A DNA stretch of 32,000 nt from Megasphaera elsdenii DSM 20460 (lineage in GTDB: Bacteria; Bacillota; Negativicutes; Veillonellales; Megasphaeraceae): assembly GCF_003010495.1 (NCBI RefSeq), contig NZ_CP027570.1:2010001-2042000 (forward strand). The letters are read 5' to 3'. Positions 24 through 16,618 of this stretch are shown piece after piece (the stretch's first letter is position 1; the number at the start of each line of letters is the position of its first letter). The notes beneath the pieces are model-generated. The model saw only the letters and a list, made by a program, of their open reading frames with translations, made no database searches and was not told the origin of the DNA. The translations under genes were made by a program, and so were the position numbers.

Positions 24-3000
24 ATGATAACTTCTTCTACCTCCGATATGGACGTTAAAATCCCTAACGGTGAAATTGAAGCATTCGGTGGAGATAAAGT
101 GAAGTTAAAAGATGCCGATAAGCAGGATATTGCAGATTATCTCTCAGACTATTATAATATAGATACAGAACCGGATAACATCAAGGTTACGAAGGAAAAT
201 GAAGTCCATGTCACAGATGCTTTCCGCTATTTCTTCCCGGACGATGTATCTAAAGATATTTTCAATCGCCTCGGCGAAGAAGACCAGAAGAAATTCCTTG
301 CAGACGGATACGAAGTGAAAGGAGAAGATAAAAATGTACAGACCGACGAAACTACCTCCGATGCCAGAGGGAGTAACGGACCCGAGCATTTGGAGGGGGA
401 TGTGGTGCAACGGAATTCTTACCCTCCCAGAAGGAATGACGCAGGAAGAAGTGGACAAGAAACTCTGGGAAGGAGACAAAGAGTTTCTGGACAAGTACAG
501 CAAGCCAGTAGGGGGCTTGGACCCGAATATCGATTAACCAAACTCGGTAACAAACTAAAGAAAGCCATCCATTTGGCAACTCCAGAAGGAGTAAGTATCG
601 ACGCACCCACTTTAAACAAATTAATAAATGACTCATTTGGAGATTTATCACCACGGTTGCAATCGAAAATTGCGGAAGCTCTTGACGATATGGCAACCGT
701 GTTTATTTATGATGGGGAAAAAGAAAAGACCGGAGCTCTCGGTAGAACCTATTCTGAATATAACGTAATCAGAATTTTCAAAGATGCATTATCCGGGGAT
801 AAAAGTACACCTACCGTACTCCATGAAACTATTCACTCTCTCCACGCCGCTATTGAACGTGGATTAGGGGATAAAGAATACGGGATTAATTACATCACGT
901 CTAATAATTTCGTTGATAAAGAAAAAGACCAGTTAGAGGATTATAGGATTGAATATACAAACAGATTGATTGAGCAACTCCGCGAAGGAGAAGGTTTTAC
1001 CAATAGCTGGAGAATCTTAGTATACGACCATACCATAAGGAACCCCAAAATAGTTGATTATGTATGCGATAAAATATCTAAGAGTAAAACTTTACAAGAA
1101 TCATTAAAAAAGAATAAGGAATTATACGACGAACTTTTTGTAGCTAAAACTTTATCTCAACTTCAATTAGCATCAAAATATCCTCAATACAAATCCCAGT
1201 TAAAAGGTGTGGAAGACAGAATCATTGATATGGCAAACAAAGCGGTCGACGGAGCTGGGACATTGAGCTCTGCTAGAGCCTCTATATTGGAAAAGGCGAA
1301 GGTTCTGAAACCATTCTCAAACGGTACTTTCACAGATAAGGCTGTTAAAGCTTTTCTGAACTTTGTAGAAAATAGAAATACCCCATCCGCTGATGCTATG
1401 TCTATTAAGGAGCGTATAGATAAACAACTACACAAGGTCGGTATTCCCACTCACGAAGAAACAGCTCAAAGAGCAGCCCTGTATGCCGCTGGTGTCCTTC
1501 CGGGTAAAGAACGTATGAGTATCCTTCAGCGCCAATTTGAAGACCCCCTTCATATCTTCAAAAAATACTTCCCTGATGGTATGCCTATCTACCGGTTAGC
1601 AGATGGAGCCCGCCGCAAGATGGAAAAGTTCGTTGGAGATTACTCCCAGAAATTCTTGGACGTATTCAAAGGCCTCGATAAAGATGAACGGAAGGTATTC
1701 GACTCCCTCGTTTTGAAAGCCAATGAAATGCACCGAGACCCTATGCAGGTCATTAACCTTGACGATGGGATTCACCTCGCAGTCCGTCATGACGCCTTTA
1801 TTGAACATTACGATAGCGCTCCTGAAGCTATTAAAAAGATTCAGGAAATCCGTAACTCTGGTAAATATCGTCTGTCCAAGATGATTCAGGAGTCGGAAGA
1901 AAACGAAAACGCTGGATTCGGCAAAGGCTTCACAGTATTTGCTCTCCCTAAAGGCAGTGCCGCTTTCAAGTCTGAAGATGCCGCCCAGAAGTACGCAAAA
2001 GCTCACGAAAAAGAAGCTTATATCTCAATGATTCGGTCTCTCTCGGACAAACCGATGAAGTCATCTCAGGTAGATAACGTCATGAGTTCCTTTATGAAAT
2101 ACCGAGACATGATGGATAAGGTCTACGAAACATCTGCGCAGGCCGCAAAAGAGTCCGGGGCTAACTATAAACTCCCAAAGAAACTCAACGGCTATTTCCC
2201 GCAAATCCACCTTCCCTACGTCGTTTGGGTAAAAGATAAGGACACCAAGACCTTTGTCCGCACCGCCAGCTTCTATAACGCCTCCGAAGCATCCAAGAGG
2301 GCAAAGGAACTGAACCAAGCCGGACAAGAAGCTTACTGGGCAGAAATTAATCCTATCAACGCCATGGCTCACGGAGATAGATTAGCTAAAGTTGATCGAA
2401 TGACAGAAGACCAGCTTAAACAACTGAATGACGAAGGGTTAATCTCCGTCAGCGAATCTAATAATGACACAGGCAATTATAATGAAGCTCTCAAACGGGT
2501 GTTTAATCCCTTGTTCAAGGAACATCATACGGTTGCCATTAAAGATGTTATGTCCCATATCGAAAAAGTGAACCGATACAGGAGCAATACAGGCAGTGCC
2601 GTTCATGACAACTACGTTAAGAAGCTCCAGTCCCAGATTCGGGTAACGGGATTGTATAAAAAGCTTCAAAAGATGAAGAAGGATGCTATCATTTCCCAAG
2701 ATGAACTGAATAATATCATTAATAGCGCCAACATGAAACAACAGTTCAATCCGTTCTTCCAGAAGCGTTCCGGAGCCAGCGGCTACAGCCAGAACGTAGC
2801 GGACTCTGTATATCGTTACCTTATCACGTCCGGGAACTTTATCAGTAAAGCAAAGTTCTACGCAGAAGCCACGGCCTATTACACGAGTAAATATCATAAA
2901 GACATTCGGGAAGAGGCTACAACGAACGAACAGAAATTCTTAAAGACGTATATCGAAGCTAACCACAGACCCACTTCCGTTACAGCCCTTGACCGGATGA

Positions 3001-4538
3001 TTAATGACTATATGAACCTGCTCGCAGAAAAAGACCCGACGGGTATTGGTTCCCTGCTCCGTAGACGGTACGGACATAACCTCTATACAGGGCTTGCTAA
3101 AGACACACTGTCCTTACAAAATCTTTTGAAACTCGGCTTGTTCCGCCCGGCTTCGTTGGCTGTTCAGGCTTTTCAGGTACTTAACGCCAATGCAAAACTT
3201 GGTGGTAACAAATATATCGGTATGTCTAAATACTTCCGGACGGGACTCAAGGAAGCAACCGGATCGAAAAACGATGCTAAATGGAAAGAGCTTTATGACT
3301 ATATCGGAATCAACGAAAGAAGCGTAGCTATCGATTCGGAAATCCTCGGTCGTCCTACCGGCGTCTTTGATAAGAAAATCCTGTTCGGCAAATCGGCAAA
3401 GGATTTGGCAGATAAGTCTATGTGGTTCTTTAATGTCGGCGATAAGTGGGCACGTAAAGCAACCGCAATCGGTGGTTATCTGAAAGCTATGGATGACTTT
3501 AAGGAACTCTCCCATGATGAAAAGAAAATGATGTTGGACGAAGCAATTACTTCATGGCAAACAAAGAAAGACCGAGCTAGACAGAACCACTATCCTTTTA
3601 AAGACCCTAAGCCCACGATGGCAAGTGTACGGAAAGAATACGTGTTCAATAAAACGAAAGACTTGGTCACAGAAACGAACTTCAACTATTCGGTAACAGA
3701 TTCTCCGTTAGCTATGACCGAAGCCGGGGTAACAGGCAAACTCCTCCTCCAATTCAAGAAATATCCACTGTTCACGTTGAACTTCATGCTCCACAATACA
3801 AAAGAAGAGAATATCCGGTTCCTCGTCCCCATGTTCATCATGGCTGGCGCCCTGGGTATGCCTTGTGCTAATCTAGTAGACGACATCTTCGATAAGACGA
3901 CGGGCCACAGCCCCGTCATGGCTTTGAAGAAAGGTATGATTAACTGGGCCGGTGGTTCCTCTGCGAAGAAAGCCTTGGTCAACGTAGCTCTGTATGGTGC
4001 TCCGTCATTGGCCGGCATCAACCTTTCCGGTAATATTGGCCTTGGCGACGCTATCCAGTTCGACCTCGGGCCTACTGTATCGACCGTATCCAATATCGCA
4101 CAGGGCAACGGAATCATTCGTTCTCTGGCCCCTAGATTGGGTGCTCTTGAAGAAGCTGTAACCGGCAAGAAAGAAAACAAATACGGACAAATCACAGCAA
4201 AATACACTCCCTACGACCAGCTCCTCAAGGTTTTCGGTTTCCGGACGATGGCAGAGACGAACTCTTCGGATGCTACTCGCGTCATGAAACTGGCTACTCA
4301 GAAATATAACGAATGTAAGTCCCAAGCTAAGAAGGAATATATCAAGAACCCGAACACAGATAATTACGAGGCATTAAAGATTTATGGTATGAGTGACGGT
4401 GATATTGCAAAGCTGCTGAAAACTAAAGATACAACAGCCATGGAAACTGCAATTAAGACGGTTCCAAAGAAGGCAAAGAGCCCGGAAGCGCAGGAAGTAC
4501 GTAACCTGTCCAAGGCGGCTCAGGAGTTCGTAAAGTAA
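24..4538 (+). CDS. Giant phage protein (at least 1504 aa) resembling polyvalent / ejected virion proteins: zincin-like HExxH motif, long helical middle, C-terminal hydrophobic segments. The 5' end may lie outside the window.
   Basis: Uninterrupted 4.5 kb ORF. There is no in-frame stop between nt 3 and the ATG at 24, so the frame is open to the window edge. HETIH (HExxH) at nt 822-836. GYFPQIHLPYVVWV (about nt 2187-2230) is reminiscent of the PLxRFG-type motif of large polyvalent proteins (unverified). Hydrophobic stretches FLVPMFIMAGALGMPCANLV and ALVNVALYGAPSLAGINLSGNIGLG lie near the C-terminus. Stop is TAA at 4536-4538. Confidence 0.7.
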   Translation: MITSSTSDMDVKIPNGEIEAFGGDKVKLKDADKQDIADYLSDYYNIDTEPDNIKVTKENEVHVTDAFRYFFPDDVSKDIFNRLGEEDQKKFLADGYEVKGEDKNVQTDETTSDARGSNGPEHLEGDVVQRNSYPPRRNDAGRSGQETLGRRQRVSGQVQQASRGLGPEYRLTKLGNKLKKAIHLATPEGVSIDAPTLNKLINDSFGDLSPRLQSKIAEALDDMATVFIYDGEKEKTGALGRTYSEYNVIRIFKDALSGDKSTPTVLHETIHSLHAAIERGLGDKEYGINYITSNNFVDKEKDQLEDYRIEYTNRLIEQLREGEGFTNSWRILVYDHTIRNPKIVDYVCDKISKSKTLQESLKKNKELYDELFVAKTLSQLQLASKYPQYKSQLKGVEDRIIDMANKAVDGAGTLSSARASILEKAKVLKPFSNGTFTDKAVKAFLNFVENRNTPSADAMSIKERIDKQLHKVGIPTHEETAQRAALYAAGVLPGKERMSILQRQFEDPLHIFKKYFPDGMPIYRLADGARRKMEKFVGDYSQKFLDVFKGLDKDERKVFDSLVLKANEMHRDPMQVINLDDGIHLAVRHDAFIEHYDSAPEAIKKIQEIRNSGKYRLSKMIQESEENENAGFGKGFTVFALPKGSAAFKSEDAAQKYAKAHEKEAYISMIRSLSDKPMKSSQVDNVMSSFMKYRDMMDKVYETSAQAAKESGANYKLPKKLNGYFPQIHLPYVVWVKDKDTKTFVRTASFYNASEASKRAKELNQAGQEAYWAEINPINAMAHGDRLAKVDRMTEDQLKQLNDEGLISVSESNNDTGNYNEALKRVFNPLFKEHHTVAIKDVMSHIEKVNRYRSNTGSAVHDNYVKKLQSQIRVTGLYKKLQKMKKDAIISQDELNNIINSANMKQQFNPFFQKRSGASGYSQNVADSVYRYLITSGNFISKAKFYAEATAYYTSKYHKDIREEATTNEQKFLKTYIEANHRPTSVTALDRMINDYMNLLAEKDPTGIGSLLRRRYGHNLYTGLAKDTLSLQNLLKLGLFRPASLAVQAFQVLNANAKLGGNKYIGMSKYFRTGLKEATGSKNDAKWKELYDYIGINERSVAIDSEILGRPTGVFDKKILFGKSAKDLADKSMWFFNVGDKWARKATAIGGYLKAMDDFKELSHDEKKMMLDEAITSWQTKKDRARQNHYPFKDPKPTMASVRKEYVFNKTKDLVTETNFNYSVTDSPLAMTEAGVTGKLLLQFKKYPLFTLNFMLHNTKEENIRFLVPMFIMAGALGMPCANLVDDIFDKTTGHSPVMALKKGMINWAGGSSAKKALVNVALYGAPSLAGINLSGNIGLGDAIQFDLGPTVSTVSNIAQGNGIIRSLAPRLGALEEAVTGKKENKYGQITAKYTPYDQLLKVFGFRTMAETNSSDATRVMKLATQKYNECKSQAKKEYIKNPNTDNYEALKIYGMSDGDIAKLLKTKDTTAMETAIKTVPKKAKSPEAQEVRNLSKAAQEFVK

Positions 4539-4547
4539 GGGGGATGA

Positions 4548-4919
4548 ATGGAGAATTTCACAACAGTTGTAGAGGCACTTATTTTAATTTGTACGGCATT
4601 GGGTGGCTTCCGAGAGGCCATCCTCAAGCCGTATTTTTCACACCGGGACAAGGAACGGGAATGGAAAGAAAAATATGACCAAGTTATTGAAGAAAGGGAG
4701 AATGAAAGGGAAGAACGTCAAAAAGAACGAGCTAAGATGCTGGGGGATAAGTACGACCAGCTCGTACAGAGCATCTCTAATCTAAGCAACTTAGTAAACC
4801 GTCTTGGTGCGGAACAGCAACAGATGGCCCTTGACGAGGCCCGGTTCCACGAACGTTTCGAGTCTGTAGAACGGAGGTTGGATGATATTCAAAAAAGGGT
4901 TGACTCGTATAGTCAGTAG
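4548..4919 (+). CDS. Membrane-anchored coiled-coil protein, first gene of the lysis cassette (i-spanin-like or holin-accessory architecture)
   Basis: SD-like AGGGGGA sits just upstream of the ATG at 4548, 10 nt after the giant ORF stop. N-terminal hydrophobic segment TTVVEALILICTALGGF is followed by a highly charged E/R/K-rich helical region. It lies directly upstream of the holin-like and muramidase genes. Confidence 0.6.
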   Translation: MENFTTVVEALILICTALGGFREAILKPYFSHRDKEREWKEKYDQVIEERENEREERQKERAKMLGDKYDQLVQSISNLSNLVNRLGAEQQQMALDEARFHERFESVERRLDDIQKRVDSYSQ

Positions 4920-5214
4920 TACTTTCGTAGCGATGAAGTCCAATATGTCGTACATCTGTATGGCATTTGGGCTTCTTGCCGCTTTTACAGTTCTTTTATC
5001 TTGGTTATATGGTTATTGGTCTAACGGCCTGTGGGGGACACATTTTGAGATTAACTCATGCTGGCAAGGAATTTCTGCTTGTGGCATGGGGCTGGTCGGT
5101 CTGTTTAAGTGGTTAGTAGATTCCACAAAGAATAGCCCGTCCGGTGAATATCCAATTCCTCCCCGGCCAGTAGATAATTCTAAGAATAGGAGTGATGTTG
5201 AATCAAAGGTGTAG
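4882..5214 (+). CDS. Two-TMD holin-like membrane protein (alternative starts at 4933 and 4945)
   Basis: Two hydrophobic helices (YICMAFGLLAAFTVLLSWLYGYW; GISACGMGLVGLFKWLV). GGAGG lies 4 nt upstream of the ATG at 4882. The internal MKSNM resembles a holin dual-start motif. The Pro-rich, charged C-terminal tail (PSGEYPIPPRPVDNSKNRSDVESKV) ends 10 nt past the first GH25-frame codon. Confidence 0.55.
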   Translation: MIFKKGLTRIVSSTFVAMKSNMSYICMAFGLLAAFTVLLSWLYGYWSNGLWGTHFEINSCWQGISACGMGLVGLFKWLVDSTKNSPSGEYPIPPRPVDNSKNRSDVESKV

Positions 5215-5768
5215 ATATTTCTGAAAATCAGAGTTTTATTGATTGGGACGCATTGCAAGAGGCTGGTGTTGAGTTTGTCATTGTTCGTGCTGGCTACGGT
5301 CAGGGACATGAAGATTCCAAGTTTAAGGAATATGCCACGGAAGCTCTTAACCGAGGCTTCAAAGTCGGAGCATATTGGTTCAGTTATGCACTGGACGTAG
5401 ACCAAGCTCGAAAGGAAGGGGAATACTGCCGTGACATTATCGGGAATTGGGGAGGCTTGCTTGAACTTCCTGTCTTCTTTGACCAAGAGTATAGTAGCTG
5501 GCGTGAAAATAATGGTTGGGATTCTGATTCTGCCACTGCTATGTGCGATGCTTTTGCTGATGCTCTCAATCTTAATACCGGTGTTTATGCTAACTATGAT
5601 TGGTTTACTAATGTCTTGGATTATGATTACTTGAAAGGGAAATATTCTATCTGGCTGGCTCAGTACGACAACTCCCCGTCCCTTGAATGTGATATCTGGC
5701 AGTACAGCGACTCGGAACAGTATGGGGCAAATCAGTTAGATTCCAATATTTCTTATATGGAGGCATGA
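5202..5768 (+). CDS. GH25-family muramidase (endolysin). Start codon unresolved: the homologous region begins at ATC 5202, and the first canonical start is TTG 5253.
   Basis: The frame translates as IKGVDISENQSFIDWDALQEAGVEFVIVRAGYG..., the classic GH25 N-terminus (GxDxS with the catalytic Asp, then FVIxRxGYG). This begins immediately after in-frame TGA 5199-5201. No ATG/GTG/TTG occurs before 5253. AGGAG at 5188-5192 lies 9 nt upstream of ATC 5202. Stop TGA 5766-5768 overlaps the next start (ATGA). Confidence 0.8.
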   Translation: MKGVDISENQSFIDWDALQEAGVEFVIVRAGYGQGHEDSKFKEYATEALNRGFKVGAYWFSYALDVDQARKEGEYCRDIIGNWGGLLELPVFFDQEYSSWRENNGWDSDSATAMCDAFADALNLNTGVYANYDWFTNVLDYDYLKGKYSIWLAQYDNSPSLECDIWQYSDSEQYGANQLDSNISYMEA

Positions 5769-6211
5769 TGTGGAATCCAATAAAAACCTTTTCCGTTGGG
5801 TTTTGCTTAGTATTGTTGCCGTTCTTTGTGTCATTCTCTTTTGCGTCTTCCACGACAGCCGAAGTGCCGCAGACTCAGACGGTGCAGATGTCACTCGAAC
5901 AATACAACAGGTTAAAGACGAAAGTAGCACAGCTCGAACTGAACTTGACAACACTCGAACAGAACTCCGAAACGGACAAGCAAGAGCTGACGACGCTAAA
6001 AAAACAACTGGAAGACTGCAAGACAGCAATGAGCAAAGCCGAGCAGTCATCGAAGACAGCCAGCGACTCCTTGGAGAAATTAGAGACGAATTTGCAGATA
6101 TTGACAGAACAAACGGAATCACTGAAACACAAACTGGAAATCAAGAACCGGCAGAATAAGATAGCTTGGATTGTAGCGGGAACAGCTATCCTGTGCGCTG
6201 CTTCAAAATAG
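5765..6211 (+). CDS. Signal/TM - leucine-heptad coiled coil - C-terminal TMD protein; spanin-equivalent candidate at the end of the lysis cassette
   Basis: Its ATG overlaps the endolysin stop (gcATGAtg), suggesting translational coupling. It has an N-terminal hydrophobic segment FSVGFCLVLLPFFVSFSFA, heptad-like leucines (LEQYNRLKTKVAQLELNLTTLEQ...LEKLETNLQILTEQTESLKHKLEI), and a C-terminal TMD IAWIVAGTAILCAA. The overlapping frame 5770-6159 is also open but is rich in CGA codons. Confidence 0.55.
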   Translation: MMWNPIKTFSVGFCLVLLPFFVSFSFASSTTAEVPQTQTVQMSLEQYNRLKTKVAQLELNLTTLEQNSETDKQELTTLKKQLEDCKTAMSKAEQSSKTASDSLEKLETNLQILTEQTESLKHKLEIKNRQNKIAWIVAGTAILCAASK

Positions 6212-6216
6212 CCCTG

Positions 6217-6238
6217 AGTGGCCCAAAATTGGGCCACT
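6217..6238. repeat. Perfect hairpin/palindrome AGTGGCCCAAAATTGGGCCACT directly after the lysis cassette stop (no U-tract)
   Basis: 9-bp arms with a 4-nt centre, 6 nt after TAG 6209-6211. It shares a CAAAATTG core with the palindrome at 10074-10097. Confidence 0.6.
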
Positions 6239-6282
6239 AAATTCTCCATGACAAATCATACCTAGACTTCCTATTATATGTT

Positions 6283-6304
6283 AAAAAGGCCCTTGAGAGG
6301 GCCT
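6283..6304 (-). terminator. GC hairpin (AGGCCCT-tgag-AGGGCCT) preceded by an A-run, so it reads as a terminator on the minus strand
   Basis: 7-bp GC-rich stem at 6287-6293 / 6298-6304. AAAAA at 6283-6287 becomes a U-tract only on the minus strand. No obvious minus-strand gene feeds into it. Confidence 0.35.
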
Positions 6305-6335
6305 CAAATGACAAAAAACAGCATTTTATGCTTAT

Positions 6336-6366
6336 GGCCACCCTCGTTTGGGTGGCCTTATTTTTG
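6336..6366 (+). terminator. Rho-independent terminator closing the late/lysis transcription unit
   Basis: GGCCACCC-tcgttt-GGGTGGCC (6336-6343 / 6350-6357) followed by TTATTTTT. Confidence 0.7.
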
Positions 6367-6372
6367 TCTCAG

Positions 6373-16114: not shown

Positions 16115-16618
16115 TTAGAAATGGAAGGTCACGCCGGCGCCGACGCCGTGTTCGTTGTCGCCGTCTTCAGGCATATAATTGTGGTAATTGATGTTCAATC
16201 CCCAGCCGAAGGCGATGTTGTAGTTGAGGCCGGCCTGGGTTTCGGCGAAATGCGAGCCTTTGACATAAGTCGCATAGGGCTGGAGACCCAGAATGTGGGG
16301 TGCAGCGACGCCGATGCCGCCGTAGAAGGATGTCGAGCTCGCTTGGTCGTCGATGTTGTTGCGCCAGCCACCTAGGAGCTGGACTTTCGAGCCGATGACG
16401 TTGTATTTGGCATAGATGTCGTTCTGGTTGCCGTACTGGTCGCGGTCGGCTCGTTTGTAGCCAATCGTCGTCCGCGGCAGGACTTTAGCTTCGGCGTACT
16501 GTTCTTTCGTGCCGACGCCGAGGCTGACACCGGCTTCGGGCAGGACGGATAAGGCAAAGGCCTGGGGCAGGGCGAAAGCCGTGCAGGCCAGCAGGGCTGT
16601 GGTCAATTTCTTTAACAT
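16115..16618 (-). CDS. Small beta-barrel outer-membrane protein (about 8-strand OMP class)
   Basis: Signal peptide MLKKLTTALLACTAFALPQAFA. Alternating aromatic/hydrophilic beta-strand pattern. Terminal GAGVTFHF ends in Phe, the OMP C-terminal signature. Confidence 0.75.
   Translation of the reverse strand: MLKKLTTALLACTAFALPQAFALSVLPEAGVSLGVGTKEQYAEAKVLPRTTIGYKRADRDQYGNQNDIYAKYNVIGSKVQLLGGWRNNIDDQASSTSFYGGIGVAAPHILGLQPYATYVKGSHFAETQAGLNYNIAFGWGLNINYHNYMPEDGDNEHGVGAGVTFHF

Follow-up and report, generated by a model that had tools for sequence, protein, structure and literature searches.

A two-frame, spanin-like gene pair at the end of a Megasphaera prophage lysis cassette

The lysis cassette and its gene products

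We analysed a 32,000-nt stretch of Megasphaera elsdenii DSM 20460 (contig NZ_CP027570.1, positions 2,010,001 to 2,042,000; hereafter the window), in which a prophage carries a lysis operon consisting of a small membrane coiled-coil gene (orf4548), a holin candidate, a GH25 (glycoside hydrolase family 25) endolysin and two overlapping reading frames, A and B, followed by a terminator-like hairpin (Table 1). The three ORFs described in the first-pass annotation, at 4548-4919, 5765-6211 (148 aa) and 5770-6159, are present with the topologies given there, so its observation is confirmed. Three corrections are required, however. The muramidase is not directly flanked by orf4548, because the holin candidate, which had been missed, lies between them; frame A most likely starts at ATG 5768 and not at 5765; and the doubly open frame is far beyond chance.

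Table 1. Features of the lysis operon (window coordinates)
Feature	Position	Strand	Product	Description
orf4548	4548..4919	+	123 aa	Weak N-terminal TM segment and charged coiled coil; probably an accessory lysis protein (positional analogue of XhlA)
Holin candidate	4882..5214	+	110 aa	Two hydrophobic segments; overlaps the end of orf4548 by 38 nt; GGAGG at 4871-4875, 6 nt before the ATG
GH25 muramidase (endolysin)	5202..5768	+		Conserved N-terminus IKGVDIS lies upstream of the first canonical start (TTG 5253)
Shine-Dalgarno site	5758..5762	+		GGAGG shared by A and B, 5 nt before ATG 5768 and 7 nt before GTG 5770
Frame A	5768..6211	+	147 aa	SPase-I-type signal peptide (…SFSFA↓SSTT), conserved TVQMSLEQYNxLK, ~85-residue heptad-Leu helix, RQ(N/R)(K/D)xxW, 15-residue Gly/Ala-rich C-terminal hydrophobic anchor; inferred to replace the o-spanin or to act as a u-spanin-like partner
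Frame B	5770..6159	+	129 aa	GTG start; wholly embedded in A in the -1 frame; N-terminal TM helix and charged periplasmic helix ending in …DIDRTNG; i-spanin-like
Terminator-like hairpin	6336..6367	+		Intrinsic-terminator-like; 8-bp stem with 7 GC pairs, tail TTATTTTTGT; closes the lysis operon

The endolysin was identified by a match to PF01183 well above the gathering score (84.3 bits against a cut-off of 27, E 1.7e-23) and to the endolysin family phrog_291 (E 8e-28). The holin candidate matches phrog_28789 (E 1.2e-11) and carries a motif, LSWL(Y/F)GYWSN...THFE, that is conserved directly upstream of the endolysin in relatives. A and B start at the GH25 stop codon. In relatives the pair always directly follows a peptidoglycan hydrolase, drawn from four unrelated families: GH25, VgrG3-like_C, Amidase_2 and Amidase_3. 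Searches of GenBank phages returned no DNA or protein match for the region, for A or for B, and in the ESM Atlas the nearest clusters are unnamed Bacillota or phage proteins.

In a hydropathy scan, orf4548 has one weak N-terminal hydrophobic segment followed by a charged heptad region, B has one strong N-terminal segment (residues 10-28, KD 2.77), and A has an N-terminal hydrophobic segment ending in SFA↓SS and the C-terminal hydrophobic stretch IAWIVAGTAILCAAS. AlphaFold2 predicts one long helix for A (residues 43-146) and helices 5-34 and 38-114 for B, although both are low-confidence single-helix models (pLDDT 60 and 69, pTM < 0.3). PDB profile searches returned only generic coiled coils, including viral fusion heptad repeats, at E 0.003-0.1, which is not significant.

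Conservation and coding in two frames

The first-pass annotation had attributed the second open frame to T-poor composition and, because of its CGA codons, favoured the 5765 frame alone. The codon remark itself is true, as 7 of the 11 Arg codons in B are CGA, the rarest Arg codon in the phage reference genes, but T-poverty is only moderate (21% T in the overlap). Codon adaptation as a way to choose the real frame was rejected, since both frames fall below the reference genes and B is at least as good as A in 6 of 7 lineages. Gene callers in fact chose B more often than A: B is called as a gene in 43 protein clusters (59-98% identity, nearly all 129 aa), against 7 for A.

All 98 distinct complete A-family ORFs fetched, from Megasphaera genomes, gut metagenomes, IMG/VR and divergent Negativicutes, keep the -1 frame open for at least 112 codons (median 140), whereas the +1 frame is closed (median 13 codons, maximum 59); interruption of the second frame by stops in relatives, which had been named beforehand as a refuting outcome, was thus not seen. 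In each of ten DNA lineages at 48-80% mutual identity, resampling synonymous codons of one frame left the other open with P <= 0.002, in both directions, with 5-10 stops expected. The observed third forward frame has 12-20 stops in these lineages and the reverse frames have 1-17 (2-7 in the four lineages just over 50% identical to each other), so composition does not keep frames open in general, even though in the window two reverse-strand frames carry only one stop each. A profile HMM of B finds the -1 frame at E 1e-7 to 1e-57 in 19 of 20 loci of a first batch, with weaker hits (E up to 5e-3) in 15 of 16 more divergent ones.

Both wobble classes are 2- to 6-fold less variable than in flanking genes, and the non-synonymous sites of B are constrained. 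Pooled segregating sites amount to 6.7%, 10.6% and 15.5% in the three overlap classes, against 41.9% at third positions of the A-only tail (Fisher 6e-22 and 2e-14); the tail after the stop of B shows a single-coding substitution pattern, but as a baseline it is short and may lie on a recombination junction. In the window's own clade, 6/119 and 15/119 overlap sites vary, against 115/402 third positions of orf4548, the holin and GH25 (p = 5e-9 and 3e-4). These within-clade tests rest on IMG/VR, metagenome and genome loci and leave out the DNA of the 59-90% identical relatives of B. A holin-based diversity baseline in the large cluster was rejected because that alignment was mosaic, with pi high at all three codon positions.

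Translation signals were found for each frame. Six lineages have two perfect AGGAGGT sites, each 7-8 nt before a TTG, and four have a single shared Shine-Dalgarno (SD) site with starts 2-4 nt apart; the shared arrangement of the window also occurs in the relatives L033, L067 (ATGtATG) and L080 (ATGTGG). The choice of ATG 5768 for A rests on its spacing from the SD, 5 nt against 2 nt for 5765, and on a relative (L030) that has ATA in place of the first ATG. The B-only head and A-only tail regions each encode a conserved membrane segment. A is +1 relative to B in every locus examined, and no separated, non-overlapping variant of the pair was found among about 35 lineages inspected in a non-exhaustive search. 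A is the more conserved protein, with 22 invariant columns against 3 for B. The A family comprises 419 clusters at 50% identity and is present in 81 of 401 Negativicutes genomes and 32 of 110 genera, a count that leaves out phages of monoderm Firmicutes.

Relation to known spanins

No canonical Rz/Rz1 lipoprotein pair is present in the cassette. B shares with i-spanins an N-terminal TM domain and a mostly helical predicted periplasmic domain. Its family hits several Rz-like spanin profiles, phrog_89 in 15 of 21 members and phrog_214 in 11 of 21, with phrog_739, phrog_312 and phrog_13 also hit, but these matches are weak (best E 1.1e-6) and could reflect the shared TM-plus-coiled-coil build; the similarly built orf4548 hits none. 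No relationship to lambda Rz was detected when the A and B profiles were compared by hhalign (probability 9.5%, covering the TM region only).

A lacks the lipobox and acylated Cys of an o-spanin. The window's protein has no Cys at the signal-peptide end, and its cleavage site is signal-peptidase-I type. Relatives have G-[F/Y/W/Q/L/I]-C, or S or A in place of the Cys, and distant relatives have AXA sites; the cleavage motifs of A are of AXA type (SFA↓S, CSA↓Q, AEA↓A and THA↓S). We considered and rejected a lipobox reading of the conserved Cys, because the residue at -1 is bulky and the Cys is replaced by S or A in several lineages, including the window's. The window clade has the shared-SD, fully embedded layout and has lost this Cys. 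LolA is absent from this 99.99%-complete genome while LspA is present, and no LolA or LolB was found in any Negativicute (PMC5007114).

As with lambda Rz/Rz1 and P2 LysB/LysC (Kongari et al. 2018, PMC6139136), the pair is the last unit of the lysis cassette, one partner is a type-II inner membrane (IM) protein with a helical periplasmic domain, the second gene is in the +1 frame of the first and shares its DNA, and both staggered and embedded layouts occur. However, A is not a small (~60 aa) Pro-rich outer membrane (OM) lipoprotein but a 147-aa predicted helical protein with 3 Pro; the overlap covers all of B (390 nt) and not a ~180-nt inset as in lambda; and in the window clade the i-spanin-like gene is the embedded one. 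Like the unimolecular spanin T1 gp11, A has an N-terminal export signal and a C-terminal hydrophobic anchor on a single chain of similar size, encoded at the end of a lysis cassette, but it has no lipobox or lipidated Cys, its periplasmic part is predicted to be one long alpha-helix instead of mainly beta, and it is always co-encoded with a second protein.

Interpretation and alternatives

The first-pass interpretation is partly supported: this is the lysis cassette of a prophage of a diderm Firmicute, without a canonical Rz/Rz1 pair, and the products after the muramidase are spanin-like in position and topology, but its choice of a single frame and its proposal of orf4548 as the i-spanin-like member are not supported. 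We regard as shown, by comparative sequence evidence and without direct proof of translation, that bases 5770-6159 code in two frames for an IM protein (B, with a ~77-residue charged periplasmic helix) and a Sec-exported protein (A), that both starts sit behind one GGAGG, so that one mRNA and one ribosome-binding site would deliver both products, that the pair ends the lysis operon of an M. elsdenii prophage, and that it is conserved in prophages across the class Negativicutes. The function is inferred. In our reading, to which we assign a probability of about 0.6, A and B together carry out the OM step of lysis performed by Rz/Rz1 spanins in Proteobacteria, as a lipoprotein-independent equivalent. 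B would be the IM arm, and A would stand in for the OM lipoprotein arm, which this host could not place because it has no LolA/LolB. After the endolysin removes the wall, the helical pair would link or collapse the two membranes, or detach the OmpM-tethered OM, with A possibly engaging the OM through its free, conserved N-terminal tip or its weakly hydrophobic C-terminal tail. No route to the OM is evident for A, and both proteins may simply sit in the IM.

That only one frame is a gene, the other staying open through composition, is already contradicted by the evidence above and is very unlikely. It is also possible, although we consider it unlikely, that both proteins are real but regulate or assist IM steps of lysis (holin timing or antiholin, endolysin release) or serve another envelope function such as superinfection exclusion. 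Both are predicted to be anchored in the IM, no OM targeting signal is present, homology to lambda Rz was not found, and Firmicute phages commonly carry small membrane coiled-coil lysis accessories such as XhlA. On the other hand, the pair always lies 3' of the endolysin, where spanins lie; a different accessory slot already exists upstream of the holin; association with four unrelated hydrolase families indicates that the pair is not a partner of one particular enzyme; B matches Rz-like profiles, if only weakly; and these phages need some OM step, for which no other candidate is present in the cassette.

A further alternative is that A alone is a lipid-free unimolecular spanin, with an uncleaved N-terminal segment in the IM and a C-terminal segment that leaves the IM and inserts into the OM like a fusion peptide, B being a modulator. 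A has hydrophobic segments at both ends of one long predicted helix, as T1 gp11 does (PMC6139136); the C-terminal segment is short (13-17 residues), Gly/Ala-rich and preceded by R-Q-R, which goes against the positive-inside rule for a stop-transfer anchor; and A is more conserved than B. However, clean AXA motifs in nearly all lineages argue that the N-terminal segment is removed, B is as universally retained as A, and no pathway is known for moving a hydrophobic tail across the periplasm; we consider this alternative quite unlikely. A more speculative and tentative extension of the main reading is that the two long helices, their hydrophobic seams sharing the same TT dinucleotides of one ~400-nt stretch, assemble into an envelope-spanning rod needing no lipoprotein and no Lol pathway, in which A engages or fuses the OM through its N-terminal tip or C-terminal tail. 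In topology this would resemble a class-I viral fusion protein, and it would constitute a third kind of spanin alongside the two-component and unimolecular lipoprotein types.

The published work we could search does not say how phages escape from Firmicutes that have an OM, and we found no paper describing this arrangement. The main spanin survey contains no such hosts (PMC6139136), and a Negativicute prophage survey only notes that two membranes must be crossed (bioRxiv 10.1101/606087). Since Negativicutes lack LolA/LolB, a classical lipoprotein o-spanin should not work in them, and the pair provides a concrete candidate, conserved across the class and amenable to genetics. It is also an unusually long and old case of dual coding, in which a whole 129-codon gene lies inside another and the arrangement persists where lineages share only about 50% of their DNA and, by profile score only, in far more divergent relatives. 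Annotation pipelines call only one of the two frames, which makes the pair useful for studying how two amphipathic helices can be encoded at once and as a test case for gene finders.

As for orf4548, frame B and not this protein is the i-spanin-like member. It lies upstream of the holin, in the slot that XhlA-like or other small membrane coiled-coil proteins occupy in relatives, an arrangement shared with the XhlA-XhlB-XlyA type lysis modules of Firmicute phages. It has its hydrophobic segment at the N-terminus, matches no Pfam or PHROG family of known function, including XhlA (no PF10779 hit at E <= 0.1), has only close, unnamed homologues, and shows no similarity to its positional analogue in the relative L003. 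In one other relative, L019, the protein in the same slot weakly matches PF10779, at E 2.6e-5 and below the cut-off.

Genomic context and anatomy of the lysis cassette

The window joins a phage-like segment (1 to ~9100, GC 0.41-0.46) to host DNA of higher GC content (~0.55), and the host segment carries lepA, the ATP synthase operon and glyQ. The assembly is a single 2.48-Mb contig and is 99.99% complete. Megasphaera belongs to the Negativicutes, which are Firmicutes with an outer membrane (OM), and relatives of the locus were found in Megasphaera hexanoica, M. elsdenii and M. intestinihominis genomes. The first-pass annotation had referred to a beta-barrel OM protein on the host side, and this is probably the small host ORF listed in the table, which has a signal peptide and a C-terminal GVTFHF but no Pfam family.

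Features of the phage lysis cassette and neighboring DNA
Feature	Position in the window	Strand	Description
Giant virion-type ORF	ends at 4538	+	
orf4548	4548-4919	+	
Holin candidate	4882-5214	+	110 aa; phrog_28789, E 1e-11
GH25 muramidase	conserved N-terminus from 5202	+	PF01183, E 2e-23
GH25 start region	5186-5256	+	conserved IKGVDIS begins at ATC 5202, directly after an in-frame TGA; AGGAG 10 nt upstream; first canonical start TTG 5253
Shine-Dalgarno (SD) site	5758-5762	+	GGAGG; 5 nt before ATG 5768 (A) and 7 nt before GTG 5770 (B)
Frame A	5765/5768-6211	+	
Frame B	5770-6159	+	
Antisense ORF	5736-6122	-	128 aa
Antisense ORF	5875-6249	-	124 aa
Palindromes	6217-6330		two, GC-rich (GTGGCCCAAAATTGGGCCAC and AGGCCCTTGAGAGGGCCT), between the stop of A and the terminator
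Terminator	6336-6357	+	
DnaE-type polymerase gene	after the terminator	+	
Host ORF	16115-16618	-	167 aa; probably a small beta-barrel OM protein

The holin candidate had been missed in the first-pass annotation. The conserved N-terminus of the GH25 muramidase lies upstream of any canonical start codon, and initiation at the first such codon would remove the region of the catalytic Asp. In many Megasphaera relatives the endolysin is instead a VgrG3-like C-terminal domain (T6SS spike lysozyme-type; PF21277, E 3e-37) used as a stand-alone phage endolysin, as at 3249-3887 in relative L003 and 2824-3456 in relative L031 (here and below, L numbers denote relatives of the locus).

Coding and constraint in the two overlapping frames

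The observation that two overlapping frames are open over the same stretch held up. To ask whether the second frame is open by chance, relatives were collected from four sources: IMG/VR, GTDB genomes, metagenomes and a sample of 401 genomes of the class. Every complete locus keeps both frames open, always with B one base behind A. Over 98 distinct complete A-family ORFs, the -1 frame is open for 112 or more codons in all 98 (median 140), whereas the +1 frame has a median of 13 codons and never reaches 60. A few relatives (L047, L072, L077, L097 (G092) and G290) show a frameshift, a short indel or a single in-frame stop in one of the two frames; L047 has a coverage of 1.03, so that assembly error is likely there, and the genome copies may be decaying prophages.

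The loci closest to the window fall into ten DNA lineages that are 48-80% identical to each other. For each lineage, one protein was held fixed and its synonymous codons were resampled from the codon usage of that phage. The other frame stayed open in at most 0.2% of trials, in both directions, with 5-10 stops expected, while the real third frame carries 12-20 stops and the reverse frames 1-17. The two antisense ORFs that cross the overlap in the window are not conserved, since those reverse frames carry 2-7 stops in the other nine lineages. T content is 18-23%, and the proposal in the first-pass annotation that base composition keeps the second frame open therefore fails. The extreme shortage of T at the third positions of A (6% against 29% in reference genes) and of G at the third positions of B (5% against 20%) looks like a consequence of avoiding stops in the partner frame.

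Constraint was found in both frames. The third codon position of B is the second of A, and the third position of A is the first of B. Within clusters, the fraction of segregating sites is 6.7% at A1/B2, 10.6% at A2/B3 and 15.5% at A3/B1, against 41.9% at third positions of the stretch after the stop of B, where A is read alone and the normal 3 > 1 > 2 pattern is seen (Fisher tests, 6e-22 and 2e-14). In these tests, and in those that follow for the clade of the window, related sequences are not independent, and the A-only tail is short. In the clade of the window itself (the window sequence, L001 and L030), the flanking orf4548, holin and GH25 genes have a third-position diversity of 0.19-0.20, with 115 of 402 sites variable, whereas the overlap classes vary at 6 of 119 and 15 of 119 sites (p = 5e-9 and 3e-4).

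Translation signals were identified for both frames. In the window the single GGAGG precedes both starts; the ATG at 5765 is only 2 nt from the SD and is ATA in relative L030. The shared-SD layout recurs in L033 and L067 (ATGtATG) and in L080 (ATGTGG). Six other lineages have two perfect AGGAGGT sites, each 7-8 nt before a TTG. There B starts about 37 nt before A, and the SD of A is written inside the conserved K-E-E-V codons of B (L003:3880-3940, L004, L013, L076, L078 and L031), so that this B motif may be conserved for translation of A rather than for the function of B itself. Gene callers picked B in 43 protein clusters and A in 7, and a profile search found 419 A-family clusters at 50% identity.

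The hydrophobic seams of the two predicted helices are also co-encoded, as seen over 5870-6160 in the window and in L003, L004, L033, L037, L067, L080 and L031. The Leu codons of A are mostly TTR, and their TT forms positions 2-3 of B codons NTT (I/V/L/F). Hydrophobic positions of A and of the B codon that shares those bases correlate at r = 0.17-0.45 at zero shift in 8 of 8 lineages.

Predicted proteins and inferred relationship to spanins

B has one strong N-terminal TM segment followed by a charged helix (AF2 helices 5-34 and 38-114, pLDDT 69), and ends in the conserved DIDR(A/T)N(Q/G). A has, in order, a signal peptide, a conserved T-V-x-M-x-L-x-Q-Y-N-x-L-K motif close to the mature N-terminus, invariant heptad leucines modelled as one helix (43-146, pLDDT 60), R-Q-(R/N)-(D/K)-x-W, and a Gly/Ala-rich hydrophobic C-terminus of 13-17 residues. 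A is the more conserved of the two, with 22 invariant columns against 3. By motif inspection, the residue before the predicted cleavage point of A is A, S or C and the residue at -3 is small, and distant relatives show textbook AXA sites (SQA↓EE, CSA↓Q, AEA↓A and THA↓S, the arrow marking cleavage). The Cys found in many Megasphaera relatives is preceded by F, Y, W, Q, L or I, and is replaced by S or A in the window and in three other lineages. A is therefore not a lipoprotein by the usual rule, as judged from these motifs.

Four observations point to the OM step of lysis as the role of the pair. The pair always directly follows a cell-wall hydrolase, which comes from four unrelated families (GH25, VgrG3-like_C, Amidase_2 and Amidase_3). 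B-family members match several "Rz-like spanin" PHROGs, although weakly (phrog_89 in 15 of 21, best E 1e-6), while A gives mostly generic coiled-coil hits and the similarly built orf4548 gives no Rz-like hit. A is in the +1 frame of B, as Rz1 is in Rz. Furthermore, the family is spread through the class, being present in 81 of the 401 genomes sampled and in 32 of 110 genera.

Other results speak against membership in the known spanin families: hhalign found no relation to lambda Rz, A lacks the lipobox that defines o-spanins and u-spanins, and no PDB relative was found. The host has LspA but no LolA, and Negativicutes as a group lack LolA and LolB (PMC5007114), so that a lipoprotein o-spanin would have no known route to the OM, which is a plausible reason for a different partner. 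Searches of open-access papers and bioRxiv found nothing on spanins in Negativicutes. The sequence analysis shows that the overlap is dual coding and that the pair is conserved across the class; that the two products act in lysis, and at the OM, is inferred from sequence alone. We conclude that the pair works like a spanin (an inference to which we assign a probability of about 0.6) but is not a member of the described spanin families. The interpretation offered in the first-pass annotation was supported only in part.

The topology of orf4548 is as described in the first-pass annotation, which had proposed it as an i-spanin-like protein. With low confidence, we read it as an accessory lysis protein rather than a spanin, as it lies upstream of the holin candidate and has only close, unnamed homologues. 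The same slot in relatives holds unrelated small membrane coiled-coil proteins, one of them weakly XhlA-like.
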